From an uncultured Anaerolineales bacterium (lineage in GTDB: Bacteria > Chloroflexota > Anaerolineae > B4-G1 > SLSP01), in assembly GCA_964501335.1 (NCBI GenBank), contig CAZCTC010000010.1:64001-128000 (forward strand): DNA of 64,000 nucleotides, in the 5' to 3' direction. The position numbers and the translations under genes were made by a program. A model generated the notes under the pieces. The model was not told the origin of the DNA. It ran no database searches and worked only from the letters and a program-made list of their open reading frames with translations. Numbering within the stretch: position 1 is the stretch's first letter; each line of letters starts with the position of its first letter. Shown here in pieces: positions 8,357 through 32,901 of the stretch.

Positions 8357-8370
8357 GAGGGTTTTTTTAT

Positions 8371-18105: not shown

Positions 18106-18294
18106 GTCAATTTTTCAGCTACTTTAATCATAAATAAAAAAGGCCGGGTGATTGTTGGGGTTGTGTTAGGACTTCGTTGTGGTTTTGTTGGTAGGCATGT
18201 TTGTAACTTGAGCTAAAATGGTAGATACCAATTTTGGGTTGAATTTGGATTGTCCCGTGAGGTTGAAATCAAGATAGTAAGAAAGGTTGAACCC

Positions 18295-20967
18295 ATGGAT
18301 AAAGAGTGGATTTTGCCTTTGGATGCCGGGGGGGCTCAATTAGAGGCTGTGGGAGGTAAAGGGGCCAATCTGGCCCGGCTGATGGCGGCCGGTTTTTCGG
18401 TTCCAGGTGGTTTTTTGGTTACCACGTCGGCCTATGAAGCCTTTGTTGCGGCCAATGATTTGCGTCGGCGAGTCTCTGTCCTGGCTGAGACAGTTGCCGT
18501 AGACGATCTGGCAGCTCTGGAGGCTGTGTCGGCGGAGATTCGCGCCGGTTTTGCCCGGGGGACGATGCCGCCGGCGTTGGCAGAAAGTTTACAGGATGCT
18601 TATCGTCAGTTGGGCCAGCCGCCTGTAGCCGTGCGTTCTTCGGCGACGGCGGAAGATCTGCCGGATTTTTCTTTTGCCGGACAACAGGATACGTTTCTTA
18701 ATGTGATCGGTGAGGATGCTCTGTTGCGGGCCGTGGTGGATTGTTGGAGCAGTTTGTGGACGGCCCGGGCTATCGGTTATCGCAAACGTAATGCAGTCAG
18801 CACGGGCGGGTTGGCGTTGGGTGTAGTGGTTCAACAGATGGTGAACAGCGAGGTTTCGGGGGTGCTCTTTACGGCCAATCCCCTCACCGGGGATCGGACT
18901 GAAGTGGTGATCGATGCGACCTGGGGATTGGGGGAGGCTTTGGTTTCCGGGCAGGTGGAGCCGGATCATTATGTAGTAGCGGCAGGGACGTTGATTTTGC
19001 AGAAGGCTGTGGGGGCCAAAGCGGTGATGATCCGGCCGGCAGACACCGGGGGCGTGGTTTCATTGGAGGCCGGTCTCTCGCATCAACAGGCGCTGCCCGA
19101 TCCGGTGATTTTGGAACTGGCGCAGTTGGGGCGGAAGATCGCGGTGCTTTACGGCGTGCCGCAGGATGTGGAATGGGCCTGGGCGGAAGGGAAGCTTTTT
19201 GTGCTTCAGGCGCGGCCGATCACTTCTCTTTACCCGCTGCCGGACGGGCTGCCGGAGAATCCGCTGGCTGTGTTGATTTCCTTTGGGGCGGTACAGGGGA
19301 TGTTGGATCCGATGACGCCGTTGGGGCGCCAGTGGATTCAGAGTTGTATTCCAGTCATTGCCCGGCGTTTTGGGATGAAGAAGGATTTGAAGACGCAGAC
19401 CGTATTGGTGGAATCGGCAGAACGGATGTTTATGAATCTCACACCCGTCGCTCATAATAAAGTGGGGCGAAAGCTTATGCGGGCGGCCATGGGGGCGGTC
19501 GAACCGGCGGCGCGGGCCGGATTGGAGTTGTTGTGGGACGATCCTCGATTGGCCCATCCCGGGCCGTTGCGGTTTCGTTCGGTTGGGGCTCTGGTGCGAG
19601 GGATGGGACCGGTATTTGTGCGGGTCATCGGCAATCTGTTACGGCCCGAATCGATGCGGCCGCGGGTAGATAAACGGGTGGAAGCGATGCTCGCTGATTT
19701 TGCCCAACGCAGCGCGGCGGCAGCCTCTCTGGCGGATCGTTTAACTCTTTTTCAGGTGATTTGGGAAAGTATCCCCGGGATTATTTTGGGGGAACTTTTG
19801 CCGGGGATGGTCGCCGGGATGGCGATGTTTGTTGCTTTGATGAAGCTGGCCGAAGCGGTGCCCGGGGGGGATCTGGAGGTCCTGGCGGTGACGCGAGGGA
19901 TGCCGGGAAACGTCACGACGGAGATGGATCTGGCTTTGTGGGTAACCGCGCGACAAATTCAATCTGATCCGGCGGTGAAGGCCTTCTTTTTGCAGACGCC
20001 GGCGGAGCAACTGGCGGCGGATTGGATGGCCGGAACTCTGCCTTCGATGGCTCATTCGGCGATTCAGGCTTTTATGGATCGTTATGGGATGCGCGGGTTG
20101 GCGGAGATCGATCTGGGGCGGCCCCGTTGGCGAGAAGAGCCGGTTCCGGTTTTTCAGTCCTTGCAGAGCTATTTACAGATCACCGATCCGGAGCTGGCGC
20201 CGGATGCCGTTTTCAGCCGGGGAGCCGTGGCCGCGGAAGCGGCTTTGACGTATCTGGTAACCGCATTACGGTCCCGGCCGGGCGGCTGGTTGAAGGCGCG
20301 GCTGGCGCGAGCTGCAGGGCGACGGGTGCGGTTGTTGCTGGGGATTCGTGAAAGTCCCAAGTTTTTTGTCATTCGGCTGATGGGAATGTTGCGGATGGCT
20401 TTGTTGGAAAGCGGTCGCGATCTGGTTTCCCGCGGGATCTTGCAGGCGCCGGACGATCTTTTTTTTCTGGGGTTTGCCGAGTTGCAATCTCTGGCCGACC
20501 ATGAACCAGGAGAATGGAGGGCGCTGGTCGATCAACGGCGCGCGGTTTATCAACGTGAACTGCGGCGGCGGCAGATTCCCCGGGTGTTATTGGGCGATGG
20601 GCGGGCTATCTTTGAAGGGTTGAGTGCGGATGCCGAAGCCGCCGGAGTGGGCGAGCTGGTCGGCAGTCCTGTTTCGCCGGGGGTGGTTGAAGGTGGGGTG
20701 CATGTGGTGTTAGATCCCCGGGGAGTTCAGTTGATCCCCGGTGAAATCCTGGTTTGTCCGGGAACCGATCCTTCCTGGACCCCCCTGTTCCTTTCGGCGG
20801 GAGGACTGGTGATGGAGGTCGGTGGGCTGATGACCCATGGAGCCGTCGTGGCGCGAGAGTACGGCATTCCGGCGGTTGTGGGCGTCCATGATGCGACGAC
20901 GCGGTTGCAAACCGGACAACGGATTCGAGTTGACGGAGCAACCGGGAAAATTGTGATTTTGGCGTGA
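18295..20967 (+). CDS. PEP-utilising phosphotransferase with PpsA / rifampicin-phosphotransferase-like architecture
   Basis: N-terminal PPDK_N ATP-grasp segment (GGKGANLARL...GFSVPGGFLVTT). C-terminal swivel phosphohistidine domain (GGLMTHGAVVAREYGIPAVVGV). The start is placed at the ATG with RBS gaaagg (MDKEW); the ORF could extend to 18250. Confidence 0.8.
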   Translation: MDKEWILPLDAGGAQLEAVGGKGANLARLMAAGFSVPGGFLVTTSAYEAFVAANDLRRRVSVLAETVAVDDLAALEAVSAEIRAGFARGTMPPALAESLQDAYRQLGQPPVAVRSSATAEDLPDFSFAGQQDTFLNVIGEDALLRAVVDCWSSLWTARAIGYRKRNAVSTGGLALGVVVQQMVNSEVSGVLFTANPLTGDRTEVVIDATWGLGEALVSGQVEPDHYVVAAGTLILQKAVGAKAVMIRPADTGGVVSLEAGLSHQQALPDPVILELAQLGRKIAVLYGVPQDVEWAWAEGKLFVLQARPITSLYPLPDGLPENPLAVLISFGAVQGMLDPMTPLGRQWIQSCIPVIARRFGMKKDLKTQTVLVESAERMFMNLTPVAHNKVGRKLMRAAMGAVEPAARAGLELLWDDPRLAHPGPLRFRSVGALVRGMGPVFVRVIGNLLRPESMRPRVDKRVEAMLADFAQRSAAAASLADRLTLFQVIWESIPGIILGELLPGMVAGMAMFVALMKLAEAVPGGDLEVLAVTRGMPGNVTTEMDLALWVTARQIQSDPAVKAFFLQTPAEQLAADWMAGTLPSMAHSAIQAFMDRYGMRGLAEIDLGRPRWREEPVPVFQSLQSYLQITDPELAPDAVFSRGAVAAEAALTYLVTALRSRPGGWLKARLARAAGRRVRLLLGIRESPKFFVIRLMGMLRMALLESGRDLVSRGILQAPDDLFFLGFAELQSLADHEPGEWRALVDQRRAVYQRELRRRQIPRVLLGDGRAIFEGLSADAEAAGVGELVGSPVSPGVVEGGVHVVLDPRGVQLIPGEILVCPGTDPSWTPLFLSAGGLVMEVGGLMTHGAVVAREYGIPAVVGVHDATTRLQTGQRIRVDGATGKIVILA

Positions 20968-21176
20968 ACATTTTGCTGAGTGCTCTCGTTTAACGAATAA
21001 GCCGGACAAAAGGGACCGGAATGGAATTGCTTTTATTGATTAAAACATGGATCACAGCCATCCGGGCGCTCCAGAATCAGATCTCTGTCTGGTTTTTGGA
21101 GCAAATTGCGGTTGGACGGCGATTTTTCTTCAGATATGAAGGCTCAGAGGCCGAACCGGCCACGCCTGATTTGATT

Positions 21177-21716
21177 ATGAGCTTTCAGCAAGGGCATCCC
21201 GAAGCATTTGAGCTGATCTATCAACGATTTAAGAACTATGTCTATCGGGTGGCCTGTTTTTTGGTGCGGGACGATGTGGAAGCTGAGGATGCAGTTCAGG
21301 AGACTTTTCTGGATGTGTTGCATGGATTGCCGCATTATGTACCCAGTGAGAAGGCCGCCTTTGAGACCTGGCTTTATCGGGTTACCATCAATCGTTGTAC
21401 TACCCGATTGCGGCGTAAGGTTTTGCCGTCGACCGATTGGGATGAGATGACGGAACAGATGGAGAATTTACCGACTCCTGATCTGGAAGGCGATCCGGAA
21501 GCGGTTTGTCTGGGCCATGAGGAGACCCTGACGTTGTGGCGGGCCGTCGATACATTGTCGGAGGAGCATCGCGCGGTATTGGTGTTGCGTTATGGACAGG
21601 ATTTGGGGTATGAAGAGATTGCTCAGGTTTTAAATATCAATTCAGGGACGGTGAAATCACGCCTGTTCAATGCTCATCGCAAGTTGCGGTCGGTTTTAGA
21701 GGCCATGAGTGGATAA
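21177..21716 (+). CDS. ECF-family RNA polymerase sigma factor (sigma-70 regions 2 and 4)
   Basis: Region 2 FELIYQRFKNYVYRVACFLVRDDVEAEDAVQETFLDV. Region 4 HTH LSEEHRAVLVLRYGQDLGYEEIAQVLNINSGTVKSRL. The start is placed at internal Met 21177 for a 179-aa product; the ORF is open from 21021. Confidence 0.8.
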   Translation: MSFQQGHPEAFELIYQRFKNYVYRVACFLVRDDVEAEDAVQETFLDVLHGLPHYVPSEKAAFETWLYRVTINRCTTRLRRKVLPSTDWDEMTEQMENLPTPDLEGDPEAVCLGHEETLTLWRAVDTLSEEHRAVLVLRYGQDLGYEEIAQVLNINSGTVKSRLFNAHRKLRSVLEAMSG

Positions 21717-21732
21717 TGGCAGGGGGTGGTGA

Positions 21733-24700
21733 GTGAGTAGAAACCATGTGGAGCAGGAATTGCTGGCCTATCTGGACGGAGCATTGGATGCACGGACCCG
21801 AAGCCGGGTCGAAGCGCATCTGAAGGAATGCCCGACCTGTACGGCTGAGCTGGCGCGGTTGAAGCGGCAACGCCTGATATTGGGGCAGGTTTTCAAGATC
21901 AAATTGGGGGAGAAGCAGTTGCCGGCGGCGGCCGATCGCCGGATTCGGACCCGGCTGCGTCAGGAAGCGGAGCCACGCCGGGAATGGTGGTGGGCCTGGC
22001 GCGGTGGGTTGACGCAGGTGGCCCTGGCTTTTATGGCAGTGGCGATGGTGATCACGGCCTGGCCGTTTCTGTCACCTTCGACCTCTCCTGCCGTTCTTCC
22101 GACTGTTCCGCCGCGGACCGAGGTGATGGGACAGAGCCGGCTGGCGCCGGGAAGCCGGGCGGCGATGCGGATCGTGGTGAGAGAACAATTATCTCCGCAG
22201 CCGGTTTCGGGGGCCGAAATTGAAGTGCGGTTGGGCAAGGTGCCCGGACTGGCGGCGTTGGTCTATCGGGGCCGGACGGATGCGGAAGGCATGGTCCAGG
22301 CGGCCTTTACGGTGCCGGAAGAGCTGGAAGGGGCGGTCAATCTGGTGGTGAAGACCGTGGTGGCCGGGCAAAGTGGAGAGATCGTGCGGCCGATTGTGGT
22401 GGTGCGCAGCGCCCGTCTTTTTTTGAATTCCGACAAACCGGTTTATCGGCCCGGGCAGGAGCTGTTTGTGCGGGCGCTGGCATTGGATGCGATGAACCTT
22501 CGCCCGGTGGTTGGGGGGCAGGTGGCTTTTGATATTTTGGACAGCAAGGGGCGTTCCTTAAATCATCAGGTATTGAGGGCTTCGGATTATGGGGTGGCTG
22601 CCTTTACCTGGAAAGTAGCCGATGATTATGCCGACAAGTCGTTGACTTTAAGAGCGACCATCAGTGATACCGTGTCGGAACGTCAGGTAATGGTAGGGGC
22701 TTATCCGCGGGCAGCTTTTCGGCTGAATGTTGAACCGGGACGGACCTTTTATGCCCCCGGGAATCGGGTGACCGGTACCGTTCAGGCTGATTATTTTTTT
22801 GGAAAGGCAGTGGCGGACGCCATGGTGCGGATTGTCGGGCGGCAGGGGGGGGCGGCTGGCGTCATCATAGCCGATGTCAGCGGGCGTACGGATGCCCTGG
22901 GACGGTTCGATTTTACTTTCAATTTGCCACTGGAAGATAGCTGGCGTGAGTTGGGTGGGCAGCCGGACATTCTCTATCTGACTGTGTCGGCGACCGACAG
23001 CGCCGGTCGGACCGAAGGAGTACGTCGGGAGATGCCGGTTTCCCGGGCGGGTCTTCTGATCCAGGCGGTTCCGGAGCGGGGCAGTTTGAAGCCGGGGGTT
23101 GAGAATATCATCTACATTTCGACGGCTTATCCAGATGGACAACCGGCTGCGACGGAGATGGAAATTATGGTTGGAGATGTGTCTTATCAGGTAGCGACCG
23201 ATTCTTACGGCATGGGGGAATTTCGGCTGAAGCCTTTGACTGAGACGGTGATGCTGGAGATTGTCGCTCATGATGAGCAGGGGCAGACGGGCGCCCGGGT
23301 TTTCAATCTGGCAAGCTTTTATGGATCGAAGAGTGTGTTAGTGCGAACCGATGGAGCGATCTATCGAGTAGGGGATACCCTGCATGTGGAAGCTTTGACG
23401 GCGGGGGAAATTCGTCAACTCTATCTGGATGTGTTGCAGGCCGGGCAGTCGGTGGCTATGCTTTCGGGGTTTGTGGAAGAGGGGCGGGCGGCCTGGGCGA
23501 TCGATTTGGACAGCTCGCTGGCAGGGACTCTGGAACTGCATGTGTATGCGGCGGACGATGAGACCCTGGAGGATAGCCGTTCTGTGGTGGTCGATCCGGC
23601 GAATGAGGTTGCCGTGCAGGTGACGGCGGATCGGGCGGTCTATCGGCCTGGAGAGCAGGCCCATTTACAGTTTCAGACAACTTTGACGGAGTCCGGGAAG
23701 TCCCTGCCGGCGCAGGCTTTGCTGGGAGTGGGTGTTGTTGATGCGTCGGTTTATGCGTTGGAACAGTTGCCGGTGGGCTTTGCCCGCACCTATTTTCTGT
23801 TGGATAAAAAATTATCCAGTGTGCCTCAATTGGGTTTTGCCGTGGATCAGGGTTTGGCGGCCGGGTCGGAAAATAGAGCGGTTCGTCTGGCGCAGAGTCG
23901 CGCTGCTGAGGCGGCCTGGGCCTTGGCCGGCGATTCTCCGATCGGAGAAAGGAGGCTTTATGCATTGTCCGTTTCTTATGACGTGCGTTCATCGGCGCAA
24001 AATCAGAAGTCGCCTTCCGATGGGGTGCGGAGACTGTTGGCAGGAATCCTTCTGATATTGGCGATTTTTCTGTGGGTTGTTGTAATTCAGACCCTGTTCC
24101 GGTTGGAGTTAGTGAGAGCGGCTTTGCCCTGGATGGGGGGGGGGATGGTATTTGCTTTTCTGGTCTCACCGCTGCTCTTCTCGCTTACTTCATGGTTGGT
24201 TAATGGCTTGGTTTCGGTGTTGGGGAACTGGATGTTGTTGGTTTTCCTGATTCCGATGGTGGGCCTGTGGGGATTTTTGTGGCGGCAGGGGTGGCGCCGG
24301 CAGGATGTCAGGTTACAGGAAGCGATGGCCATCGTGGGCGCCTATGGGATTTGTGAGAGTTTGCTGATCGTATTGACCCGTGAAAGCCAGAATTTGGCGG
24401 AATTCGAGACGGTGGTGGCGGTCTTTTCTTTTCTGGTATTGCTGGGAGGCATGCTCTTGCTGGGGGCCAGTTTGTGGTTCGAGGGGCATCGTAAGCCGGC
24501 CGGATGGAGCCTGGCTCTGGTGATCGTGTGGGTGATGCTTTCTTTGGCCTTGCCGTCGATCCCGGCCATTTCTTCCCGATTGACTCAGACATTGGGCGAG
24601 CCGGTGCTTTATGCCGGGCCGTTGGGCTGGTTGAGCGGGTGCGCGGCTCCGATGAGTCCTACTGCGGCTCCGACTACAGAGGCTCCGGCTGTTGAGGAGC

Positions 24701-25323
24701 CGACCGAAGCGGCTACAGAAGAAGCAACGGAAGCGCCGACCGAAGAGGCAACTCAGGAAATTCCTACTGCGGCTCCGACTGCTGCGCCGCCGACTGCTAC
24801 GCCCGTTCCAACGCCGGGAATTGAAGTGCCGATGGAACCTTTCCCGTTGCGGCAGTTTTTCCCGGAGACCCTTTACTGGAATGCAGCAGCTGAGACCGAT
24901 GCTGAAGGGCGATGGGATCTGGATTTGCCGTTGGGGGACAATGTGACGACCTGGCGGGTGACGGCGCTGGCTTCAACTCAAGATGGTGCTTTGGGGGCCG
25001 TAGTTTACGATCTGCCGGTCTCTCAGGATTTCTTTATGGAGCTGAATTTACCTGAAACGGTGCGTAGCGGGGCCGAGGTGACCGGTACAGCTACGTTGCA
25101 CAACTATTCACAGGTCAGTCAGACCGTGCAGGTGCAGTTCGCGCCGGCGGACTGGTATGAGGTGCAGGTTTCTTCCGGGACGGTAACGTTAGGACCGGGG
25201 CAGGTAGTTGCCGTGGACTTTGTGTTGAAAGCCGGGCAGGTTGGGAAGTTCACTCTGTTGGTTAAGGCAAACGGGGAGGGAGTCCAGGATGCTCTGGCCC
25301 GGGAAGTCGTGGTCCATGAGTGA
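21733..25323 (+). CDS. anti-sigma factor (zf-HC2 N-terminus) fused to a very large extracytoplasmic domain, an internal multi-TM block, a Pro/Thr/Glu/Ala-rich linker and a C-terminal beta-rich domain
   Basis: GTG start 17 nt after the sigma gene. N-terminus ELLAYLDGALD...HLKECPTCTAEL is the anti-sigma zinc-finger signature. TM helix at about aa 95. About 8 predicted TM helices at aa 760-950. Linker APTTEAPAVEEPTEAATEEATEAPTEEAT. Confidence 0.75.
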   Translation: MSRNHVEQELLAYLDGALDARTRSRVEAHLKECPTCTAELARLKRQRLILGQVFKIKLGEKQLPAAADRRIRTRLRQEAEPRREWWWAWRGGLTQVALAFMAVAMVITAWPFLSPSTSPAVLPTVPPRTEVMGQSRLAPGSRAAMRIVVREQLSPQPVSGAEIEVRLGKVPGLAALVYRGRTDAEGMVQAAFTVPEELEGAVNLVVKTVVAGQSGEIVRPIVVVRSARLFLNSDKPVYRPGQELFVRALALDAMNLRPVVGGQVAFDILDSKGRSLNHQVLRASDYGVAAFTWKVADDYADKSLTLRATISDTVSERQVMVGAYPRAAFRLNVEPGRTFYAPGNRVTGTVQADYFFGKAVADAMVRIVGRQGGAAGVIIADVSGRTDALGRFDFTFNLPLEDSWRELGGQPDILYLTVSATDSAGRTEGVRREMPVSRAGLLIQAVPERGSLKPGVENIIYISTAYPDGQPAATEMEIMVGDVSYQVATDSYGMGEFRLKPLTETVMLEIVAHDEQGQTGARVFNLASFYGSKSVLVRTDGAIYRVGDTLHVEALTAGEIRQLYLDVLQAGQSVAMLSGFVEEGRAAWAIDLDSSLAGTLELHVYAADDETLEDSRSVVVDPANEVAVQVTADRAVYRPGEQAHLQFQTTLTESGKSLPAQALLGVGVVDASVYALEQLPVGFARTYFLLDKKLSSVPQLGFAVDQGLAAGSENRAVRLAQSRAAEAAWALAGDSPIGERRLYALSVSYDVRSSAQNQKSPSDGVRRLLAGILLILAIFLWVVVIQTLFRLELVRAALPWMGGGMVFAFLVSPLLFSLTSWLVNGLVSVLGNWMLLVFLIPMVGLWGFLWRQGWRRQDVRLQEAMAIVGAYGICESLLIVLTRESQNLAEFETVVAVFSFLVLLGGMLLLGASLWFEGHRKPAGWSLALVIVWVMLSLALPSIPAISSRLTQTLGEPVLYAGPLGWLSGCAAPMSPTAAPTTEAPAVEEPTEAATEEATEAPTEEATQEIPTAAPTAAPPTATPVPTPGIEVPMEPFPLRQFFPETLYWNAAAETDAEGRWDLDLPLGDNVTTWRVTALASTQDGALGAVVYDLPVSQDFFMELNLPETVRSGAEVTGTATLHNYSQVSQTVQVQFAPADWYEVQVSSGTVTLGPGQVVAVDFVLKAGQVGKFTLLVKANGEGVQDALAREVVVHE

Positions 25324-25350
25324 GTGGGGGTATTAAAAAAGGAGATAGGG

Positions 25351-25770
25351 ATGGAACGGAATGAGAAAAAGATTAAACGTCCTTTTTTGCGGAAACGCTG
25401 GGCTTTGATTTCCGGTCTGGCGCTGGCTTTTTCGGCAGCCTGTGCCGTGCCGGTAACCTGTTATACTCCTATGCCGTCAACGATTGAGCCGTCAGCGACG
25501 CCGACCCAAACGCCGACTCCCACGCCTACGCTTTTTTTCGTCTGTTATACGCCGACGCCTTCGCTGCAACCGATTGATACGTTGACGCCAACCTGTTATA
25601 CGGCTACTCCGATAGCGACTCCCACGCCAGTTTTGATTCCGCCGCCCGAGGCGACCTTCACGCCGATTCCGGCCACGCCTACGCCGATGCCGCAGACATT
25701 GGATGAATTGCGGGAGAAGTTGCTGGTCGAGGGGCGGTTTCCGGAGGGTGTGGTTAAGGAATTGAAGTAG
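25351..25770 (+). CDS. secreted Pro/Thr-rich Cys-Tyr-motif peptide with the conserved C-terminal EGRFP motif (precursor-like, type C)
   Basis: RBS ggag 7 nt upstream. Signal-peptide-like N-terminus. Three CYT(P/A) motifs. C-terminus LDELREKLLVEGRFPEGVVKELK. Confidence 0.6.
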   Translation: MERNEKKIKRPFLRKRWALISGLALAFSAACAVPVTCYTPMPSTIEPSATPTQTPTPTPTLFFVCYTPTPSLQPIDTLTPTCYTATPIATPTPVLIPPPEATFTPIPATPTPMPQTLDELREKLLVEGRFPEGVVKELK

Positions 25771-25783
25771 TTGTGGAGGTTAT

Positions 25784-26128
25784 ATGGAACTCGGAAACAG
25801 AAATCGAGGACGGTTGTCGCGCAAGTTGAAATTGTTGGCGGCTTCCGGGATTGCGTTGGGCCTGGCGGCCCGTTGTGCGGCCGAGCCTACTCCTGAAGTG
25901 CTCTGTTATGCTCCGGTTGCGCCGACTCCGACTGAAACGCCCATGGTGATGTGTTATGAACCCACCATGTCGCCCATTGAGGAGACGCCCACGATCACGC
26001 CAACGGCAACGCTTACCGGTTCTCCGGAAATCACCATTACACCAACTTTGGAATCCCGGAGCACTTTAATGGAACAATTATTGACTGAAGGACGTTTTCC
26101 AAAATGTGTGGCGGAGGAATTGAAATAA
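25784..26128 (+). CDS. secreted Cys-Tyr-motif peptide, type A (copy 1)
   Basis: RBS ggagg. N-terminus MELGNRNRGRLSRKLKLLAASGIALGLAA. Motifs LCYAP and MCYEP. C-terminus RSTLMEQLLTEGRFPKCVAEELK. Confidence 0.6.
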   Translation: MELGNRNRGRLSRKLKLLAASGIALGLAARCAAEPTPEVLCYAPVAPTPTETPMVMCYEPTMSPIEETPTITPTATLTGSPEITITPTLESRSTLMEQLLTEGRFPKCVAEELK

Positions 26129-26154
26129 TTAAATTAATCTAAAGGGATTGATGT

Positions 26155-26547
26155 ATGGGCCAGAAAAAGAGAAGGTTATCGCGTAAGGCGATGTTGGTGG
26201 TGGTTTCTGGAATGGCCGTGGGAATGGCGGCAAGTTATAATGCGGGAGTTGCCATGCCGCCGCCCACGCCTACGCCCACTGCCATTTATTTGACCCCGGC
26301 GGCACTTCCGAACGAAAGCACTGTTTTGCCGCGTTTTCATCCACGCGACATAAGCTGTTATATAGTAATTGATGTAACCCCAGAAGAGAGCTGGATCTCG
26401 TCTCCGGATGGAGCTACCGCGACGCCGACTCCCACACCTACTCCGACTTTGATAGGGAGTTCGGGACCGACCTCTCTGGATCTTTTACGGGAGCAGTTGC
26501 TGGCAGAAGGGCGATTTCCGGATGAGGTGGCGAAGGAATTGAAATAG
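26155..26547 (+). CDS. secreted Cys-Tyr-motif peptide, type B (copy 1)
   Basis: N-terminus MGQKKRRLSRKAMLVVVSGMAVGMAAS. Motif SCYIVIDV. C-terminus LDLLREQLLAEGRFPDEVAKELK. Confidence 0.6.
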   Translation: MGQKKRRLSRKAMLVVVSGMAVGMAASYNAGVAMPPPTPTPTAIYLTPAALPNESTVLPRFHPRDISCYIVIDVTPEESWISSPDGATATPTPTPTPTLIGSSGPTSLDLLREQLLAEGRFPDEVAKELK

Positions 26548-26637
26548 CGAAAATCCTTTTCGGGTGATTTGTTTTTAGTGTCCCACAAAGGGATTTTGCC
26601 CGGTAAGAAGCGACGCGCTGGAGGGAGGAAGGGGCAT

Positions 26638-26982
26638 ATGGAAAGCAAAAACAGAAATCGAGGCCGGTTGTCGCGTAAGTTGAAATTGTTGGTGGCTTCC
26701 GGGATTGCGTTAGGGTTGGCGGCGCGCTGTGTGGCTGAGCCTACGCCGGAAGTGACCTGTTATGCAGTGGCGGCGCCGACGCCGACTGAAACGCCGATGG
26801 TGATGTGTTATGAACCCACCATGCCGCCCATGGAGGAGACGCCCACGATCACGCCGACGGCAACGCTTACCGGTTCTCCGGAGATCACCATAACACCAAA
26901 TGTGGAATCCCGGAGCACTTTAATGGAACAATTATTGACTGAAGGACGTTTTCCAGAATGTGTGGCGGAGGAATTGAAGTAA
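26638..26982 (+). CDS. secreted Cys-Tyr-motif peptide, type A (copy 2)
   Basis: Around 90% nucleotide identity to 25784-26128. RBS ggaggaagg. Motifs TCYAV and MCYEP. C-terminus ...EGRFPECVAEELK. Confidence 0.6.
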   Translation: MESKNRNRGRLSRKLKLLVASGIALGLAARCVAEPTPEVTCYAVAAPTPTETPMVMCYEPTMPPMEETPTITPTATLTGSPEITITPNVESRSTLMEQLLTEGRFPECVAEELK

Positions 26983-27008
26983 TTAAATTAATCGAAAAGG
27001 ATTGATGT

Positions 27009-27428
27009 ATGGGCCAGAAAAAGATAAAGTTATCGCGTAAGGCGATGTTGGTGGTGGTTTCCGGAATAGCCGTGGGAATGGCGGCAAGTTATAATGCGGG
27101 AGTTGCTATGCCGTCGCCCGCGTCCATATTCACGCCCACGTCCACGCCAACTCCCTCTTTCGTTCATTTGCTTTCGAACGGAATTGCCGTTTCGTCGCCC
27201 CATCGTCCAATCGGCGTGAGGTGTTATCTTGTAATTGATGTAACTGAGGTAACTCCAGAAGAAAGTGGGATCTGGTATCCTGATGGAGTTTTCGCGACGC
27301 CGACTCCAACGCCGACTCCCACTCCGACTTTGATAGGGAGTTCGGGGCCGACCTCACTGGATCTTCTACGGGAACAGTTGCTGGCGGAAGGGCGTTTCCC
27401 GGATGCGGTGGCGAAGGAGTTGAAGTAA
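27009..27428 (+). CDS. secreted Cys-Tyr-motif peptide, type B (copy 2)
   Basis: Paralogue of 26155-26547. Motif RCYLVIDV. C-terminus LDLLREQLLAEGRFPDAVAKELK. Confidence 0.6.
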   Translation: MGQKKIKLSRKAMLVVVSGIAVGMAASYNAGVAMPSPASIFTPTSTPTPSFVHLLSNGIAVSSPHRPIGVRCYLVIDVTEVTPEESGIWYPDGVFATPTPTPTPTPTLIGSSGPTSLDLLREQLLAEGRFPDAVAKELK

Positions 27429-27433
27429 GAAGC

Positions 27434-27703
27434 ATGATAAAAAAGCGGAGTAACAAAATCTCCGGGGGGCCGCGCCGGAAGCCGGGGGCGGATTTTTTGG
27501 TCCAGATGTTTCAGGAGTTACACGATGCTGAGGTACGTTCTACTCCGGATTTGAGCATCTGTTACGAGATCCAGGCTGTGGAACCTGATCCGGTAACCGG
27601 GGCAGCTCAACCGGAGAAATCCCGGCAGCTTTTGCGAAGCCGGTTGGTCAAAACCAACCGCTTTCCTGCCGGTGTGGAGGGTGAGTTGGGGGAGGAACGA
27701 TGA
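27434..27703 (+). CDS. sixth family member: no signal peptide, degenerate C-terminal motif, translationally coupled to the radical SAM gene
   Basis: 89 aa. Motif SICYEIQAV is related to the type B SCYIVIDV. C-terminus LLRSRLVKTNRFPAGVEGELGE. Its stop overlaps the rSAM start (ATGA). Confidence 0.5.
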   Translation: MIKKRSNKISGGPRRKPGADFLVQMFQELHDAEVRSTPDLSICYEIQAVEPDPVTGAAQPEKSRQLLRSRLVKTNRFPAGVEGELGEER

Positions 27704-28815
27704 AAAGAAAAGAAGGAAAGCGGACCTGGCTTTCGCGGTGGCGGCAGGTGCTGGCTCAGGTAGAGATGCGGCAGGCGCAAAAGAGAGAGCCGGAACGGGC
27801 TTCTTATTTTATTCTGGAGTTGACGGCGCGTTGTAACCAGGATTGCCGGTATTGTTATAATGTCTGGAAGGCGCGCGAGGGGATGGTCCAACGGGAGATG
27901 ACGACCGAAGAGTGGTGCACGTTGATCGGTCGGTTACAGGACGAGATGGGCTGTCGGCAGGTGACTTTTTCGGGCGGGGAGCCGCTGCTGCGAGAGGATT
28001 TCCGTGAGATCCTGGCCTTCTGTCACCGGCGAGGGTTGGAGAGTATTGTGATTAGCAATGGCCGGTATCTGGACCAGGAGATGCTGGAATTCTGTCTGGC
28101 CCACGGGGTGAAGATGTTTGAAGTGACGCTGCTGGGTTCCAATGCGGCGACCCATGACGGATTGACGCGGGTGCCGGGCAGTTGGGAGCGGGCTCTTTCC
28201 GCGATGACCCGGCTTTACAAGGCCGGGGCTACCTGGTGCGGTGTTTTTGTGGCGACGAGTGAAAATATCGGGCAGGTGCGGGAGACGGTGGAGATGATGA
28301 TTGCGCTGGGGGCGAAGGTCATTATGTTTAACCGGTTCAATCCTGGCGGAGAGGGGGCCCGGCATCGCGATTTGATGCCGGCACCGGATGATGTGCAGAA
28401 GGCGTTGCGGGTTGTGGATGAGCTGGCTGTGGCGTATAATTTCCCTGCAACGGCTTCGGTGCCGGTGATGCCCTGTCTGGTCGATCTACACGGCTTTCAA
28501 CGGGTGCAATTTGGGTTTTGTGCGGCGGGGCGGGCGGGTTCTTATCCCACCATCGGGCCGGATGGCCGGGTGCGCCCTTGCAATCACAGTGCGACCATTC
28601 TGGGGGATTTTCATCAACAGTCGATGCAGGAGATGTTGGAGGGGCCTGCGTTGCGGGCTTTTACGGCCGTGGTGCCTGAGGTTTGCCGGCCCTGTCCGGG
28701 GCTGGATCAATGCCGGGCGGGGTGCAGGGCGGCTGCAGAGGTCTGTTTTGGTTCATTGGAAGAGCCGGAACCCTGGTTGAAGGCTAATTTAGAGCGATTG
28801 CCGCCTATGGTTTAG
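27700..28815 (+). CDS. radical SAM enzyme with a C-terminal SPASM-type auxiliary Fe-S cluster domain (peptide/protein maturase type)
   Basis: CX3CX2C motif CNQDCRYC near the N-terminus. SAM-binding GGEPLL. C-terminal Cys-rich block CAAGRAG...CNHS...CRPCPGLDQCRAGCRAAA. 371 aa. Confidence 0.85.
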   Translation: MKRKEGKRTWLSRWRQVLAQVEMRQAQKREPERASYFILELTARCNQDCRYCYNVWKAREGMVQREMTTEEWCTLIGRLQDEMGCRQVTFSGGEPLLREDFREILAFCHRRGLESIVISNGRYLDQEMLEFCLAHGVKMFEVTLLGSNAATHDGLTRVPGSWERALSAMTRLYKAGATWCGVFVATSENIGQVRETVEMMIALGAKVIMFNRFNPGGEGARHRDLMPAPDDVQKALRVVDELAVAYNFPATASVPVMPCLVDLHGFQRVQFGFCAAGRAGSYPTIGPDGRVRPCNHSATILGDFHQQSMQEMLEGPALRAFTAVVPEVCRPCPGLDQCRAGCRAAAEVCFGSLEEPEPWLKANLERLPPMV

Positions 28816-28825
28816 GCACATTGAG

Positions 28826-29150
28826 GGATGAAAAAGGAATTTCACCACAGAGGCGCAGAGATCACAGAGAAGAAGAAGAGAGGAGATTTTCTGAAACGTA
28901 AAAAGTAATGATCTGTGGGTTTGGTGCAACGGTGAAGGGAGGGGGTAAGCGGATGTTGCCGGGATGCTTTTGGAAAAAGCCATGTTTTTGCGCGCATTCT
29001 GATGCGCGCAAAAACATAAATAAAAAACTCTCTCTGCCTATCCAGCGCGGCGTATTGTAAGGGGAGAGTGCCATTTACGGGTGAGGAGGATTTTTCCAGA
29101 CAGGTGTAACGCACTCGGATCTTGCAATGATGGGCGGTTTGCCTTCAGAT
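28826..29150. repeat. dispersed intergenic repeat element, copy B (left arm, hairpin 28982-29017, right arm)
   Basis: Left arm ggatgaaaaaggaatttcaccacagaggcgcagagatcacagagaagaagaagagaggagattttctgaa matches 6995-7062. Hairpin atgtttttgcgcgc-attctgat-gcgcgcaaaaacat. Right arm aaataaaaaactctctctgcctatccagcgcgg. Confidence 0.8.
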
Positions 29151-29238
29151 TGGTCCGTTTGAATCGATGGTTCTATGGATAGAAAGTGCGTCGCACCTTA
29201 AGGTGGGTTATTTTCAGGACAGAATTTGAGGAGGCGTT

Positions 29239-30093
29239 ATGTTGTTAACCGATTTTATCCATCGTCAGGCTGTTCCTGAGCCATGGGCGGAGGGGGAGAA
29301 GATCCCCTGGAACGATCCGGAATTCAGCCGGCGGATGTTATTGGAGCATCTTTCGCAGGCCCATGATGCTGCCAGCCGGCGTTTCGAGCGGATTGAGCGG
29401 CATGTGGCCTGGATCCAAAGGGTATTGTTGAAGGGGCAATCGGCGCGGATTTTGGATCTGGGATGCGGTCCGGGATTTTATTCTAACCGACTGGCGCGGC
29501 TGGGAAATCAATGTGTGGGGATCGATTTTTCTCCGGCTTCGGTCGAATATGCGCGAGAGCTGGCCGGGGCCGATCAGCTGGATTGTACTTTTATAGAAGG
29601 GGATATTCGGAAGGTGGCGTATGGTGGGGACTATGATTTGGCCATGTTGATTTATGGCGAGTTCAACGTTTTCAAGCCGGCGGAGGCGGAATCCATTTTG
29701 CACAAGGCGTGGGCGGCGTTGAAGCCGGGAGGAATTTTATTGTTGGAACCTTCGACCTATGCCTGTATCCAGGAATTGGGGCAGCGGCCTCCGGAATGGT
29801 ACAGTGCCGATGGTGGGTTATTTTCCGAGCGGCCGCATTTATGCTTGATGGAAAATTTCTGGGATGAAGAGTGCAACGTGACGACGGAGCGATATTGGAT
29901 TGTAGATGCGGAGACGGGGAGTGTGACCCGGCATGCTTCGAGTTCCCAGGCGTACAGCGATGCCCAATTTCAGGCGCTGCTGGAGCGCTGTGGTTTTGAG
30001 GGGGTGACCTTTTATCCTTCTTTAATGGGGGAGGTCGATCCTGAGCAACGGCATCTTATGGCGGTGATGGGATGGAAAGGACAATCTGAATGA
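29239..30093 (+). CDS. class I SAM-dependent methyltransferase
   Basis: Motif I ILDLGCGPGFYS. Acidic motif II IDFS. Motif LKPGGILLLE. Confidence 0.8.
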   Translation: MLLTDFIHRQAVPEPWAEGEKIPWNDPEFSRRMLLEHLSQAHDAASRRFERIERHVAWIQRVLLKGQSARILDLGCGPGFYSNRLARLGNQCVGIDFSPASVEYARELAGADQLDCTFIEGDIRKVAYGGDYDLAMLIYGEFNVFKPAEAESILHKAWAALKPGGILLLEPSTYACIQELGQRPPEWYSADGGLFSERPHLCLMENFWDEECNVTTERYWIVDAETGSVTRHASSSQAYSDAQFQALLERCGFEGVTFYPSLMGEVDPEQRHLMAVMGWKGQSE

Positions 30094-30974
30094 AGTCGCG
30101 TGTTTATGCTGCCTCTGATTATCCGGCTTTACTACATCTATTGGGGCAGTGTGAGATGTTTACCCAGTGGACCTTCAATCCCAATGAGGTTCCCGAGAAC
30201 CCGGCTTTTACCCGTTTGTGGGAGGATGAGGCCGGGAAATTGTTGGCGGCGGCGTTTTTGCATTATCATTCCAAAGCGGAGAATGCGCGGGCTTATCTGA
30301 CGTGGGCGGTGTTGCCCGCGTGGCGGGCGGTATTGTTGCGGCAGTTGCTCGAATGGGCGATGGAGAACCGGCAGAAGTTCAATCCTATGGCTACTGTGGG
30401 GTGTAGGGCCCAGGCGGACGACGAGGCGACGGCGGCATTTTTAACGGAAGTTGGTTTTATGCCGCATCCGGAGTTGATCACTTCGTTTATGGGGCGACCC
30501 TGTGGTGGGGACCTGGAAATTCCGGCCTTACCTGCGGGCTATCAGCTGCGGCCGTTCCAGCCGGCGGATATGGCGGCTTGGCTGGCGGTGTGGAGTCAGA
30601 CTCAAAGCCATGCTTTGACTCCAGATGAACGGATGGGGTGGTTGAATTATCCTTCTTATCGACCTGAACTGGATTGGGTGATCGAGACTCCGGACGGTGG
30701 GGTGGGAGGGTATGGAGTCGGAAACCTCTTTTTAGATGAAGGGGATAGGGTCGGGCCCGATTCCGCCTGGATTTTGTGGTTGGGGGTGGATTCCGGGGTG
30801 CGGCGGCAGGGATTGGCCCAGATCCTGCTTGGGCAGTTGTTGAAGGAATTCGAGGCTATGGACTGTGAGCGGGTGATTCTCAATGTGATGTCGAGCAATG
30901 AACCGGCCATCCGGTTGTATGAAAAATTGGGGTTTACCACGTTGTGGCAGAGTATGTATTTTTCCTGCTCTTGA
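30090..30974 (+). CDS. GNAT-family N-acetyltransferase (probably a tandem GNAT fold)
   Basis: Acetyl-CoA-binding motif RRQGLAQILLGQLL...RLYEKLGF. Start overlaps the methyltransferase stop by 4 nt. Confidence 0.7.
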   Translation: MKSRVYAASDYPALLHLLGQCEMFTQWTFNPNEVPENPAFTRLWEDEAGKLLAAAFLHYHSKAENARAYLTWAVLPAWRAVLLRQLLEWAMENRQKFNPMATVGCRAQADDEATAAFLTEVGFMPHPELITSFMGRPCGGDLEIPALPAGYQLRPFQPADMAAWLAVWSQTQSHALTPDERMGWLNYPSYRPELDWVIETPDGGVGGYGVGNLFLDEGDRVGPDSAWILWLGVDSGVRRQGLAQILLGQLLKEFEAMDCERVILNVMSSNEPAIRLYEKLGFTTLWQSMYFSCS

Positions 30975-31002
30975 TGGAATAAGCAGGTGTGGGGAATGAG
31001 GA

Positions 31003-31036
31003 GCGCGTTGCCTTTCAGGAGGGCAACGCGCTTTTT
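31003..31036 (+). terminator. rho-independent terminator after the GNAT gene
   Basis: gcgcgttgcc-tttcaggag-ggcaacgcgc followed by tttttgtttc. Confidence 0.6.
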
Positions 31037-31046
31037 GTTTCTGTGC

Positions 31047-31074
31047 ATTGACAAACTTTGGTTCGCTTTTATAA
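31047..31074 (+). promoter_or_regulatory. consensus sigma-70 promoter (TTGACA - 16 nt - TATAAT) upstream of the marR-family gene, overlapped by an AGTTAG inverted repeat
   Basis: ttgaca at 31047-31052, tataat at 31069-31074. tagttagacaaactaac follows at 31076-31092. Confidence 0.6.
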
Positions 31075-31106
31075 TTTAGTTAGACAAACTAACAAGGTGC
31101 GGCGAA

Positions 31107-31538
31107 ATGGAATTTGAATTGCTGTTGTTGGAATTGAACGAAATTATCCACAATTTGCTTCGTCAGTATAAAGAAGGGGTGATCGGCGGGGAGGGATTTG
31201 GAGATATTACAACCAGTGAATTGCTTTATGTAGAAGCCATTCACCGATTGGAAAGGCCGACCGTGACCGAGCTGGCGGTGCATCTTAAGGTTTCTAAAGC
31301 TTCTACGACGCTGGCTGTGCAAAAGTTGATCAAGAAGGGAATTGTTGAAAAAACTCCATCGACAGATGATAAACGGAGTTTCACCATTACCTTATCAGGA
31401 CGGGGGGCCGGATTGATTGAAGCCGAGATGAAAGCCTTGCAGGATGTTACGGGGAGTATTCGAATTTTGTTAAACACCGAAGAGATCGAACTGACCACCA
31501 CAGTATTGCGAAAGATTATAGCTCATTATCGCCGTTAA
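31107..31538 (+). CDS. MarR-family transcriptional regulator
   Basis: 143 aa. Winged-HTH motif TVTELAVHLKVSKASTTLAVQKLIKKGIVEK. Confidence 0.8.
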   Translation: MEFELLLLELNEIIHNLLRQYKEGVIGGEGFGDITTSELLYVEAIHRLERPTVTELAVHLKVSKASTTLAVQKLIKKGIVEKTPSTDDKRSFTITLSGRGAGLIEAEMKALQDVTGSIRILLNTEEIELTTTVLRKIIAHYRR

Positions 31539-31638
31539 AGGCTGGATTTGAGTGCGGAAGTTGCATTCAAATCCAGTTTTTTATCTTGAAAAAAGTTAGT
31601 TAGTTTAACAAATTAAAAAATGAAAGGGGGATAAGCAG

Positions 31639-32037
31639 ATGAAAAACGGTAAGCTGTTGTTAAGGGTGACTTTCTGGTGGGGGCTGATCGCGGATGCGGT
31701 TGAGACGATTCGTATGTTGGCTCCAGAGCTGATGAAATCTACGACGGGACTGACTTTGCCGGTAGACAGTGGGTTGCAGTTTGGGTTGCTTTATGGAATG
31801 CCGGTGATGTTAGGATGGACACTTATTCTGTTCTGGGCCGATCGTAAACCCCTGGAGCGGAGAGGGTTGTTGCTTTGCCTTATTCCCGTTGTGCTTTCCT
31901 ATATTGGTGTGGAGCTGTTTGCCATTGCGCAGGGATGGCTGCCCGTGCAGACCATGATTTTTCCATTCTTTTCGGAAGCGGTTCTTTTGGGGTTAAGCCT
32001 GGTTTCGTATTATATGACCGGTAAAGCGGGTGACTGA
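31639..32037 (+). CDS. hypothetical membrane protein (4 TM helices)
   Basis: 132 aa and hydrophobic. RBS-like aagggggat upstream. Confidence 0.5.
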   Translation: MKNGKLLLRVTFWWGLIADAVETIRMLAPELMKSTTGLTLPVDSGLQFGLLYGMPVMLGWTLILFWADRKPLERRGLLLCLIPVVLSYIGVELFAIAQGWLPVQTMIFPFFSEAVLLGLSLVSYYMTGKAGD

Positions 32038-32074
32038 GAAGGCGGCACTCTTAAGTTCGAGGGCGTCGCCGGGA

Positions 32075-32180
32075 CGGTTCTGGAAAAAGCCATGTTTTGG
32101 TGCGCCTTCTGAGGCGCACCAAAACATCAACAAAAAAATGCTCTCCTTCCATCCTGTGATGTGCTTCTTACGAGAAAAGT
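32075..32180. repeat. dispersed intergenic repeat element, copy C (hairpin 32092-32127)
   Basis: ggttctggaaaaagcc-atgttttggtgcgcc-ttctga-ggcgcaccaaaacat-caacaaaaaaatgctctcc... Confidence 0.75.
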
Positions 32181-32181
32181 G

Positions 32182-32679
32182 TCAGGGGATGGGGGGGCAA
32201 TAACGATCCCAGTTTTGGAGCAGGTAGCCCCGAATGCCGGTTTTAGGATTGTAAGTAGGGTAACGTTGTTTGAACTGCAGCTCGGCTTCCGGGACGGTGG
32301 CGGCAGTGATCGCGCCGCAATAGACGAGGTAGAGCAGGGCAATGGAGGGCGAGCGGGATTCGCCCTGATTGCAGTGGACCAGAACTTTATGTCCTTCGGT
32401 CAGGCCGGCGTGGATAAATTCCAGGGCGGCATCGATGACTGCGGCATGGAAATATTTGGGATCATCGGCATCGACCAGATTGAGGATCAGCCGGTTATCC
32501 CGGTAGGCCAGATAGTATTCCGGGTGATTTTTATCGGCGGCGGAGCCTTTGTAGCCCAGCGCCTGGCGGTGATAGGGTTCCTTGCAGGCCTGGACGACTT
32601 TCCAGCCGGGCTGACCGGCGACCTCTTGTTCGTAAGCTTCCTGATTCCCCACATAGAGATTGGGATAGATCTCGATCAT
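32182..32679 (-). CDS. dual-specificity / protein-tyrosine phosphatase
   Basis: P-loop CX5R motif VHCNQGESRS. Confidence 0.8.
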   Translation of the reverse strand: MIEIYPNLYVGNQEAYEQEVAGQPGWKVVQACKEPYHRQALGYKGSAADKNHPEYYLAYRDNRLILNLVDADDPKYFHAAVIDAALEFIHAGLTEGHKVLVHCNQGESRSPSIALLYLVYCGAITAATVPEAELQFKQRYPTYNPKTGIRGYLLQNWDRYCPPIP

Positions 32680-32901
32680 GGATGCTCCTTATCGTATTTG
32701 AGAATGAAGGCCATCATTATAGGCGTAAACAGAAATAAGCCCATATTTTCCGGGCTGACGGCGCAGGTTGGAATTTCTTAAAAAAAGAAAATTGCTTCTG
32801 AAATCGTGAACATTTTGGGGAGTGGTCTCGTGTAATGAATAAGTCGCAGCTACAACGCCCCAAGATTTAGTAGCGAAATCAGTTAGTTAATAAGGAGGAT
32901 T

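Follow-up and report, generated by a model that had tools for sequence, protein, structure and literature searches.

In a 64,000-nt stretch of contig CAZCTC010000010.1 from an uncultured Anaerolineales bacterium (the window), we identified an extracytoplasmic function (ECF) sigma factor gene followed directly by a gene for an anti-sigma factor of 1196 aa. The evidence supports a true ECF sigma/anti-sigma pair that is conserved and whose anti-sigma factor is polytopic and unusually large; the extracytoplasmic part of this factor is modelled as an alpha-2-macroglobulin (A2M)-type array of macroglobulin (MG) domains interrupted by a membrane domain. We consider it reasonably probable that the locus is an autoregulated ECF module with an A2M-type sensor, belonging to a family conserved in Anaerolineae, and that it responds to proteolysis. 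ECF sigma/anti-sigma pairs form the third main pillar of signal transduction in bacteria and, to our knowledge, both the sensed signal and the sensor fold are unknown for most ECF groups. The genes described here all lie on the + strand, and the pair and its predicted promoter are arranged as follows.

20962-21001, + strand: operon promoter, with -35 GAAC at 20966-20969, a 16-nt spacer and -10 TCGTTTAAC at 20986-20994
21021-21716, + strand: ECF sigma factor, 231 aa (Pfam, orthologs, stop-free extension frame, database calls)
21733-25323, + strand: anti-sigma factor, 1196 aa, GTG start and TGA stop (whole open reading frame, ORF)

The sigma/anti-sigma pair and its predicted promoter

The presence of an ECF sigma factor, proposed in an earlier note on this DNA, was borne out by its domain content. 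The protein matched Pfam Sigma70_r2 (E=2e-18) and r4/r4_2 (E=6e-15) only, with sigma3 and sigma1.1 absent, and it scored 98 bits against the NCBIfam model TIGR02937 sigma70-ECF (cutoff 42.9); on these domains it is assigned to the ECF (group 4) branch of the sigma-70 family. No named ECF group was indicated, all NCBIfam equivalog models scoring far below their cutoffs. The conserved sigma2/sigma4 core, which is the last 179 residues of the 231-aa protein, begins at 21177, where the earlier note had placed the start of the gene. Based on the position of the promoter and on a stop-free frame in orthologous loci, the gene most likely starts at ATG 21021 instead, with 21021-21176 encoding an N-terminal extension of about 50 residues (~52 aa) ahead of region 2. 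The sequence of this extension is poorly conserved. In the 150 nt upstream of the core its frame is stop-free in 38 of 40 orthologous loci, as against 14 and 1 for the other two frames. In addition, the window promoter ends about 20 nt upstream of ATG 21021, and NCBI, JGI and Logan all call the sigma factor as 231 aa.

The anti-sigma gene begins 16 nt downstream of the sigma gene on the same strand, in agreement with the pairing seen in the earlier note, and NCBI and JGI both call it as a single ORF of 1191 or 1196 aa. Its start is supported by a nearly invariant H5 and by the N-termini of homologues. A search of 5.8 billion proteins returned 215 relatives, with generic database names such as ‘anti-sigma factor RsiW’, ‘MG2 domain-containing protein’ and ‘zf-HC2 domain-containing protein’. 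The first ~67 of these, mostly 1146-1235 aa long with a few shorter or longer, have a Pfam domain set identical to that of the window protein, are 35-52% identical to it over alignments covering up to 100% of the query, and all show one plus six transmembrane (TM) helices in register in a hydropathy scan. The genomes that encode them are metagenome assemblies of Anaerolineae/Chloroflexota. Scanning one genome per GTDB species gave 80 loci; in 42 of these the gene immediately upstream of the anti-sigma gene is orthologous to the window sigma factor, at 50-67% identity. From this strict pairing we infer that the anti-sigma factor would bind and inhibit the sigma factor. The idea that misassembly or a frameshift fused an anti-sigma gene, a membrane-protein gene and a macroglobulin fragment into this ORF, a doubt that the earlier note had itself raised and that has nothing in its favour except the unusual size, can be dismissed with near certainty: the architecture is equally continuous, and collinear over 100% of the query, in more than 60 independent database clusters with the same Pfam set and TM pattern and in 42 representatives of GTDB species, and domain MG6 is complete only when the parts flanking the membrane block are joined.

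We then searched the 330 nt that precede the conserved sigma core in the 42 loci for bipartite motifs by enumeration. Pairs of the AACTT/GCAT type occurred in up to 24 loci, compared with at most 8 in shuffled sequences, and 40 of the 42 loci contain a single site in identical register, yGAACyTTT-N12-kGCATGTAAC, equivalent to GAAC-N16-GCATGTAAC. The site lies about 200-240 nt upstream of the sigma core in most loci and nearer or further in a few; where an extended sigma ORF has been called, the promoter end falls between just inside the start and ~260 nt upstream of it, usually within ~60 nt. A position weight matrix (PWM) built from the 40 orthologous sites in fixed register was scanned over the window and gave only two matches of this rank, the operon promoter (18.4 bits) and a second copy (21.0 bits). 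None of 200 simulated 64-kb windows reached 18.4 bits, the simulated maximum being 17.0. It is thus predicted that the sigma gene is autoregulated through an adjacent promoter with an AAC-containing -35 element. This -35 GAAC overlaps the TGA stop of the upstream gene (18250-20967), which encodes a 905-aa phosphoenolpyruvate (PEP)-utilising enzyme (PPDK_N plus mobile domain). A database copy of this enzyme also matches the rifampicin-phosphotransferase-like Rph_4th family, and the gene is not kept beside the sigma gene in other loci.

The second promoter copy points to a further member of the regulon about 7.5 kb from the operon.

32804-32843, + strand: second cognate promoter copy, the best PWM match in the window, 33 of 40 positions identical to the first
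32902-34515, + strand: YfbK-like vWA lipoprotein, predicted regulon member (Pfam vWF_A, VWA, YfbK_C)

The same promoter precedes homologues of the YfbK-like lipoprotein in four other loci (L092, L002, L007 and L027), and the same matrix marks three kinds of gene outside the window: genes for YfbK-like lipoproteins in 3 loci, genes for DUF4349 lipoproteins just downstream of the anti-sigma gene in 11 loci, and one stand-alone macroglobulin relative (L041, 9762-9801, 32 bits).

Domain architecture of the anti-sigma factor

The anti-sigma factor is made up of the following parts, from its N-terminus to its C-terminus.

21733-21912, + strand: cytoplasmic zinc-binding anti-sigma domain, aa 1-60 (zf-HC2; H5, H29, C33, C36)
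21982-22071, + strand: TM helix 1 (TM1), aa 84-113, N-in/C-out (hydropathy, AlphaFold2 (AF2) helix, charge bias)
22111-23742, + strand: extracytoplasmic beta-sandwiches MG1-MG5 and MG6a, aa 127-670 (Pfam, AF2, Foldseek, phmmer)
23743-24000, + strand: short helical segment after MG6a, aa 671-756 (AF2, modelled at lower confidence)
24013-24558, + strand: six-helix membrane block, aa 761-942, at the position of the bait region/anaphylatoxin (ANA) domain
24565-24642, + strand: juxtamembrane motif ending in Cys970 (GWLSGC, lipobox-like; invariant residues)
24643-24837, + strand: disordered Pro/Thr/Ala/Glu linker, aa 971-1035, candidate bait (predicted local distance difference test score, pLDDT, <50)
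24850-25320, + strand: MG6b and MG7, aa 1040-1196 (Pfam A2M PF00207, phmmer, AF2)

The zf-HC2 signature and the single TM helix that the earlier note had recognised at the N-terminus were confirmed at aa 6-36 (Pfam PF13490, E=9e-10, 38.9 bits against a cutoff of 22.2) and aa 84-113, respectively. The string HLKECPTC supplies H29-x3-C33-x2-C36; these three residues are invariant and H5 is at least 90% conserved across homologues, so that the domain conforms at the sequence level to the Class I zinc-binding anti-sigma (ZAS) motif H/C-x(23-26)-H-x3-C-x2-C. In the AF2 model aa 7-60 are helical. A hydropathy segment at about aa 96-114 marks TM1, which is flanked by 9.6 Lys+Arg before and 0.6 after it and is adjoined by a Pro/Ser/Thr linker at aa 114-126.

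All the other parts described in the note were recovered as well: an extracytoplasmic, beta-rich stretch of some 640 aa, another hydrophobic block, a P/T/E/A linker and a C-terminal domain of about 160 aa. The test that it proposed for an MG2/A2M-like fold likewise came out positive. Pfam matches were found to MG2 (aa 228-298), A2M_BRD (aa 537-676) and A2M (PF00207, aa 1046-1135). An AF2 model built on an alignment of 84 sequences (mean pLDDT 84, and >90 for most beta domains) contains five complete beta-sandwiches, MG1-MG5, at aa 127-223, 227-321, 329-436, 442-528 and 534-621, a half sandwich, MG6a, at aa 626-670, the other half, MG6b, at aa 1046-1096, and MG7 at aa 1100-1195. Foldseek gave 443 PDB matches with E <=1e-3, the best to CD109, C3 and C4 (E ~1e-34), and the matches to CD109, C3, C4, C5, A2ML1, human A2M and E. 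coli ECAM range from 6e-34 to 2e-25. In a phmmer search of PDB chains, aa 207-500 aligned to C3 106-412 and aa 1038-1166 to C3 762-901, the start of MG6b (FPESWLW) immediately behind C3a/alpha'NT. As modelled, therefore, the beta-rich part and the C-terminal domain are one A2M-type MG1-MG7 array with MG6 split by an insertion. It follows from the C3 alignments on both sides of the TM block and linker that these two fill, in the model, the exact slot of the A2M bait region or of the C3 processing site plus the anaphylatoxin (C3a) domain.

The protein ends where the CUB and thioester domains would start. There was no match to PF07678 or PF10569 in the anti-sigma protein, which thus gives no sign of a thioester domain (CxEQ), and CUB and MG8/receptor-binding domains are absent by Pfam and AF2. 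Elsewhere in the window we found no separate thioester-domain gene, no paralogous A2M and no DUF4349 gene.

The second hydrophobic block had been thought to hold about eight TM helices. Six are indicated instead, by six hydropathy peaks between aa 767 and 946 that are in register across the family and by the positive-inside pattern: averaged over 60 family members, Lys+Arg counts are 3.5, 3.0 and 1.4 in the loops that follow helices a, c and e, and 0.1 and 0.8 in those that follow b and d. This pattern fits an even-numbered, out-to-out topology with both flanks outside, as the assembly of MG6 requires. Three short helices follow in the AF2 model at aa 949-967. Modelled alone, the membrane block reached a pLDDT of 88.5 and a predicted template modelling score of 0.83. 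It is well conserved, including its cytoplasmic loops GWRRRDxRxQ and LGQGLVLEG, and has no match in Pfam or NCBIfam. A phmmer search of 1.84 billion representative proteins with the block gave 42 proteins, whose lengths and match positions resemble members or fragments of the same family (P0127 may be spurious). Six helices of this kind as an independent protein family were thus not borne out; judged from these searches, the block is an insertion specific to this family, with no assigned fold class.

In every member of the anti-sigma type the last helix is followed closely by LGxPALYAGPxGWL(T/S)GC, in which G955, Y960, G962, P963, G969 and C970 are invariant in an alignment of 28 sequences. 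This motif and the long linker are absent from relatives that have no anti-sigma domain, and the motif is restricted to the zf-HC2 lineage. The L-S-G-C970 of the window protein, L-[TSA]-G-C in essentially all zf-HC2-type homologues, matches the lipobox [LVI][ASTVI][GAS]C. Cys970 (24640-24642) lies ~25 residues past the last TM helix and not directly after the hydrophobic core of an N-terminal signal peptide. Because of this remote position, lipidation or cleavage there is put forward as a possibility; internal lipidation or processing by signal peptidase II could give a two-chain, C3-like molecule.

The linker that follows consists of 25% A, 22% P, 20% T and 18% E and is hypervariable in sequence and length among homologues (~85-350 aa for the aligned stretch that contains it). 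A long, disordered and hypervariable linker, as in bait regions, is kept in every anti-sigma-type member, and it lies where a bait region is expected, between MG6a and MG6b, preceded by the six-helix domain. The resemblance to the cores of the nearby peptides that the earlier note saw in its composition turned out to be loose, the peptide cores being rich in T and P with little A or E. Composition was discarded as a specific tie between the two, similar linkers being found in other envelope proteins here. The 10-residue string AATEEATEAP is identical in the anti-sigma linker (24709-24738) and in the N-terminal linker of the vWA lipoprotein (33022-33051). The two copies differ in DNA at several synonymous sites, and the string is probably a case of low-complexity convergence rather than of recent exchange.

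The putative signal and the peptide/radical SAM cluster

Under the reading that we favour, the zinc domain would sequester the sigma factor at the membrane until the macroglobulin-like module perceives some extracytoplasmic event and the anti-sigma factor is thereby inactivated, probably by regulated proteolysis. By analogy with A2M and C3, the likeliest event would be proteolytic attack on the bait-like linker, or on the Pro/Ser/Thr linker beside TM1. The freed sigma factor would transcribe its own operon together with envelope lipoprotein genes, and six peptide genes and a radical SAM (rSAM) maturase gene would be expressed as the tail of the same sigma-dependent transcript. That the pair senses an envelope signal is our inference, and protease attack as the signal is our best guess. 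It is favoured because the parent proteins (the A2M bait, C3) are activated by cleavage at exactly this site, and because the disordered hypervariable linker is kept in every member and is accompanied by a second linker near TM1.

Several points weigh against this reading. Without a thioester domain the anti-sigma factor cannot trap a protease as A2M does. The ectodomain attached to TM1 would keep its length after a cut in the linker, whereas classical site-2 cleavage needs it shortened, so a further step would be required. In both AF2 models DSSP merges TM helices b and c into a single 62-residue helix (794-855), which taken literally leaves five TM helices and an impossible topology; the family consensus shows GG and GVGAP at the expected b/c turn. 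Finally, the -10 element of the window promoter departs from the consensus at two of nine positions.

More specifically, and rather speculatively, the system could be a ‘protease alarm’ in which A2M/complement activation has been rewired into transmembrane signalling, a cut in the linker leading to release of the sigma factor and to the production of lipoproteins and peptides; we hold this detailed version only tentatively and think it more doubtful than not. Foreign or endogenous proteases would cut the exposed linker at the MG6 junction, possibly after processing at Cys970 has yielded a C3-like molecule of two chains that the split MG6 keeps joined. The rearrangement of the MG ring would be passed on through the six-helix domain, or be followed by intramembrane proteolysis, to release the sigma factor, which would induce envelope lipoproteins and, in some lineages, exported Pro/Thr-rich peptides modified by the radical SAM enzyme.

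The same module could also work with another input. The MG ring might be a scaffold for an envelope component or for the lipoproteins of the regulon (YfbK-like vWA, DUF4349), the six-helix block might sense the state of the membrane, or the zinc/thiol domain might sense redox. The missing thioester domain, and with it the missing trapping chemistry, fits such a role, as do the use of MG domains as generic binding scaffolds and a regulon of envelope lipoproteins whose vWA domains are of the adhesion type. Motifs such as HxxxCxxC can be redox-sensitive, and the conservation of the TM block and its cytoplasmic loops suggests more than anchoring. However, if the MG ring were purely a scaffold, it would be hard to see why every anti-sigma-type member keeps a long disordered and hypervariable linker at the bait position; nor is any binding partner kept beside the gene in all loci. 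We consider these alternatives unlikely, though deserving of real weight, and proteolytic triggering remains the reading that we prefer.

Directly downstream of the anti-sigma gene lies the cluster that would form the tail of the transcript.

25351-27703, + strand: five paralogous precursor-peptide genes and a sixth, divergent one (27434-27703), probably co-transcribed
27700-28815, + strand: radical SAM/SPASM maturase, last gene of the putative operon (Pfam Radical_SAM and SPASM)
28980-29019, strand not assigned: 18-bp palindromic hairpin (repeat element) resembling repetitive extragenic palindromic (REP) sequences, after the rSAM gene, likely operon end

The five precursors comprise two pairs of paralogues (B/D, 89% identity; C/E, 67-69%) and the single gene A. 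Each has a basic N-terminal region containing a hydrophobic segment, a Pro/Thr-rich core in which C-Y dipeptides recur, and LLxEGRFPxxVxKELK conserved at the C-terminus. The 89-aa ORF at 27434-27703, which contains ICYE and RFPAGVEGEL and has no hydrophobic segment, looks like a sixth, divergent precursor. The anti-sigma stop (25321-25323) and the first peptide ATG (25351), which is preceded by a Shine-Dalgarno sequence, are separated by 27 nt and not by the 2 nt given in the earlier note, and the gaps from the anti-sigma gene through the rSAM gene are 27, 13, 26, 90 or less, 26, 5 and -4 nt. The TGA stop of the anti-sigma gene and the first peptide ORF share a frame (the ORF is readable from GTG 25324), which we judged to be chance. 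Read-through of this TGA into the peptide ORF was rejected, since the homologous proteins stop at this same point and there is no hairpin behind it.

The shared ECF promoter that the note had asked for is present upstream of the sigma gene (20962-21001) and absent upstream of the peptide genes: the PWM gave no match of at least 8 bits before any peptide gene or the rSAM gene between 21001 and 31293, nor was an ECF promoter found in the peptide-cluster gaps of five other loci (L010, L085, L104, L107 and L114). At the anti-sigma/peptide junction there was no sigma-70-like promoter and no intrinsic terminator in the window, L010 or L107, and no Rfam family matched within 20000-35000. Because the gaps are short and neither a terminator nor a promoter was found between the genes, read-through from the sigma promoter is the simplest model, and the peptide/rSAM genes are likely co-transcribed in this way in this genome.

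A metagenome scan with the rSAM protein gave ~27 orthologous loci (61-70% identity). The anti-sigma gene lies directly upstream of orthologous peptide and rSAM genes in L010/L091, L085, L104, L107 and L114; in L010 the peptide and rSAM genes (64% identical) stand between the anti-sigma gene and its DUF4349 neighbour, and L091 is arranged alike. In L092, where the peptide/rSAM cluster is detached, a cognate promoter of 31.7 bits lies directly upstream of the peptide gene and another copy, of 32.8 bits, precedes a YfbK-like plus DUF4349 pair just downstream of the cluster. The wider distribution counts against a general link: the anti-sigma gene and the promoter are both absent at ~14 orthologous peptide/rSAM clusters with enough flank, and about 36 of the 42 sigma/anti-sigma loci have no peptide/rSAM genes, for which reason the link is taken to be lineage-specific. 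Thus the control or co-transcription that the earlier note proposed finds support at the junction in the window, in five further loci and in the L092 promoter, and does not hold universally. These gene orders and promoter matches support a place for the peptide/rSAM genes in the sigma regulon in some lineages, including this one, and not in all.

It is quite unlikely, in our estimation, that the cluster is a neutral insertion whose peptides are made from a promoter of their own that escaped recognition. Such an insertion would agree with the lack of an ECF promoter before the peptide genes in the window and in the five loci listed above, with the location of most orthologous clusters elsewhere, and with the L010 cluster, which sits between the anti-sigma gene and its usual DUF4349 neighbour in an insertion-like way; moreover, the promoter scan at the junction covered the sigma-70 type, other types lying outside it. 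On the other hand, the same insertion point is used in at least six loci, and the rSAM genes of these loci are dispersed over a neighbour-joining tree (drawn without support values, with the branch of the window gene coming off first), the detached cluster of L092 has a cognate promoter, and in the window only 27 nt, with no terminator, lie between the anti-sigma stop and an ATG preceded by a Shine-Dalgarno sequence.

The REP-like palindrome GGAAAAAGCCATGTTTTTGCGCGC...GCGCGCAAAAACAT is repeated at 28980-29019, 32068-32137, 51193-51248, 8363-8408 and 7426-7465. The two copies inspected, at 28980 and 32068, are intergenic and lie shortly after the end of a gene, and the element may be a terminator or an mRNA stabiliser. 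We also observed an unusually strong strand bias, all genes examined at 18-36 kb being on the + strand. GC skew is positive in every 2-kb bin of the window (strong in nearly all bins, 0.03-0.06 at 36-40 kb) and reaches a cumulative 6.3.

Comparison with known systems and relatives

By sequence tests the 1196-aa protein belongs with the class I ECF anti-sigma factors and carries the MG-ring part of the A2M superfamily; it is not a thioester protease trap. As in the membrane-bound class I ZAS proteins RsiW, RslA and ChrR, an N-terminal HxxxCxxC domain is followed by a TM helix, and the gene lies directly downstream of an autoregulated ECF sigma gene with a GAAC -35 element, probably co-transcribed with it. 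Unlike these proteins, the window anti-sigma factor is about 4-6 times larger, has seven TM helices instead of one, and has an ectodomain that is tethered to the membrane at both ends, with an MG ring as the putative sensor. It also differs from the RsiW/RseA type controlled by regulated intramembrane proteolysis, which has a single TM helix and a free C-terminal ectodomain, in that its ectodomain re-enters the membrane. It thus falls outside this single-pass architectural class, yet may nonetheless act through proteolysis. RsgI of Clostridium thermocellum and RsiV likewise couple a sensing ectodomain to an ECF-type sigma factor through a membrane anti-sigma factor. These are single-pass proteins with carbohydrate- or lysozyme-binding domains, and they have neither an MG ring nor a polytopic insertion.

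With E. coli ECAM/YfhM, Salmonella A2M, the thioester-less YfaS/MagD and C3/C4/C5/CD109/A2M, the protein shares the order MG1-MG7 with MG6 split, and the FPETxxW start of MG6b that aligns to C3 from residue 762 onward (Foldseek E of the order of 1e-34 to 1e-25). Like the bacterial A2Ms it is membrane-anchored and extracytoplasmic; unlike them it is anchored by TM helices and not by an N-terminal lipid. In contrast to the A2M/C3 proteins, it is without CUB, thioester and MG8/receptor-binding domains, is fused to an anti-sigma domain, and holds a six-helix membrane domain and a 65-aa disordered linker in the bait/ANA slot.

The same six-helix insertion occurs in full-length Chloroflexota relatives, which are 27-38% identical over the MG domains. 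They comprise proteins with a Cys thioester (P0074-P0091), P0068-71, P0078 and the 25 TGA loci described below, and P0056/P0064, which combine zf-HC2 with a thioester domain (TED). These relatives keep the thioester and receptor-binding domains and are without the L-T/S-G-C motif and the long Pro/Thr linker, and most have only an N-terminal anchor and no anti-sigma domain. One of them, L041, has the same ECF promoter as the window. A different ECF-like motif, GGAAC-N16-CGTCTAA, precedes some of the stand-alone, TGA-containing macroglobulin genes (L044:419-458, L053:485-524 and L058:9765-9804). Because of the promoter shared by L041 and the GGAAC motif of the other stand-alone genes, the whole clade of macroglobulins with this TM block may be under ECF control.

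Where the anti-sigma domain is absent, the genes of the relatives initially seemed to be divided into two ORFs, of ~1150 and ~465 aa. In 25 loci (L033, L034, L036, L040-L046, L048-L053, L055, L058, L059, L061, L063, L065, L069, L077 and L078) the two ORFs are in frame with a single TGA between them, always as LRLPHG-TGA-FEQSTS. Examples are L040, with the TGA at 13271-13273, and L077, which is a Planctomycetota genome (Ca. Uabimicrobium). The TGA aligns with the thioester motif MPFG-C-FEQTSS of the Cys relatives (GCFEQTSS), and a hairpin, GUACGUC-GGY-GACGUAC, starts 11 nt after it. The hairpin is conserved and includes one compensatory change; synonymous positions within it are frozen in comparison with the codons that follow. 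In databases these genes appear either as two ORFs or as truncated proteins (P0068-71, P0078). Given a TGA at the thioester Cys and a conserved hairpin downstream, the in-frame TGA is probably a selenocysteine that replaces the thioester Cys, with the hairpin as its insertion element. No Rfam model matched the hairpin, there was no match to a selenocysteine insertion sequence (SECIS) model in L040, and selenocysteine in macroglobulins was not found described in the literature that could be searched. A selenocysteine probably placed at the thioester position may also be interesting chemically in its own right.

In conclusion, a full-text literature search turned up no account of either a macroglobulin-type anti-sigma factor or a membrane-inserted bait region, and our analyses suggest a sensor design that is conserved in Anaerolineae and seemingly undescribed. 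It is built from a family best known as protease traps and complement proteins, with a membrane domain at the exact site of activation. If proteolysis of the linker is the trigger, the macroglobulin switch can be a signalling input and not only a trap. The predicted promoter motif, the YfbK-like vWA lipoprotein, the DUF4349 lipoprotein and the peptide/rSAM operon would then make up a defined regulon open to testing, and with it a regulatory handle on an uncharacterised family of radical-SAM-modified peptides.

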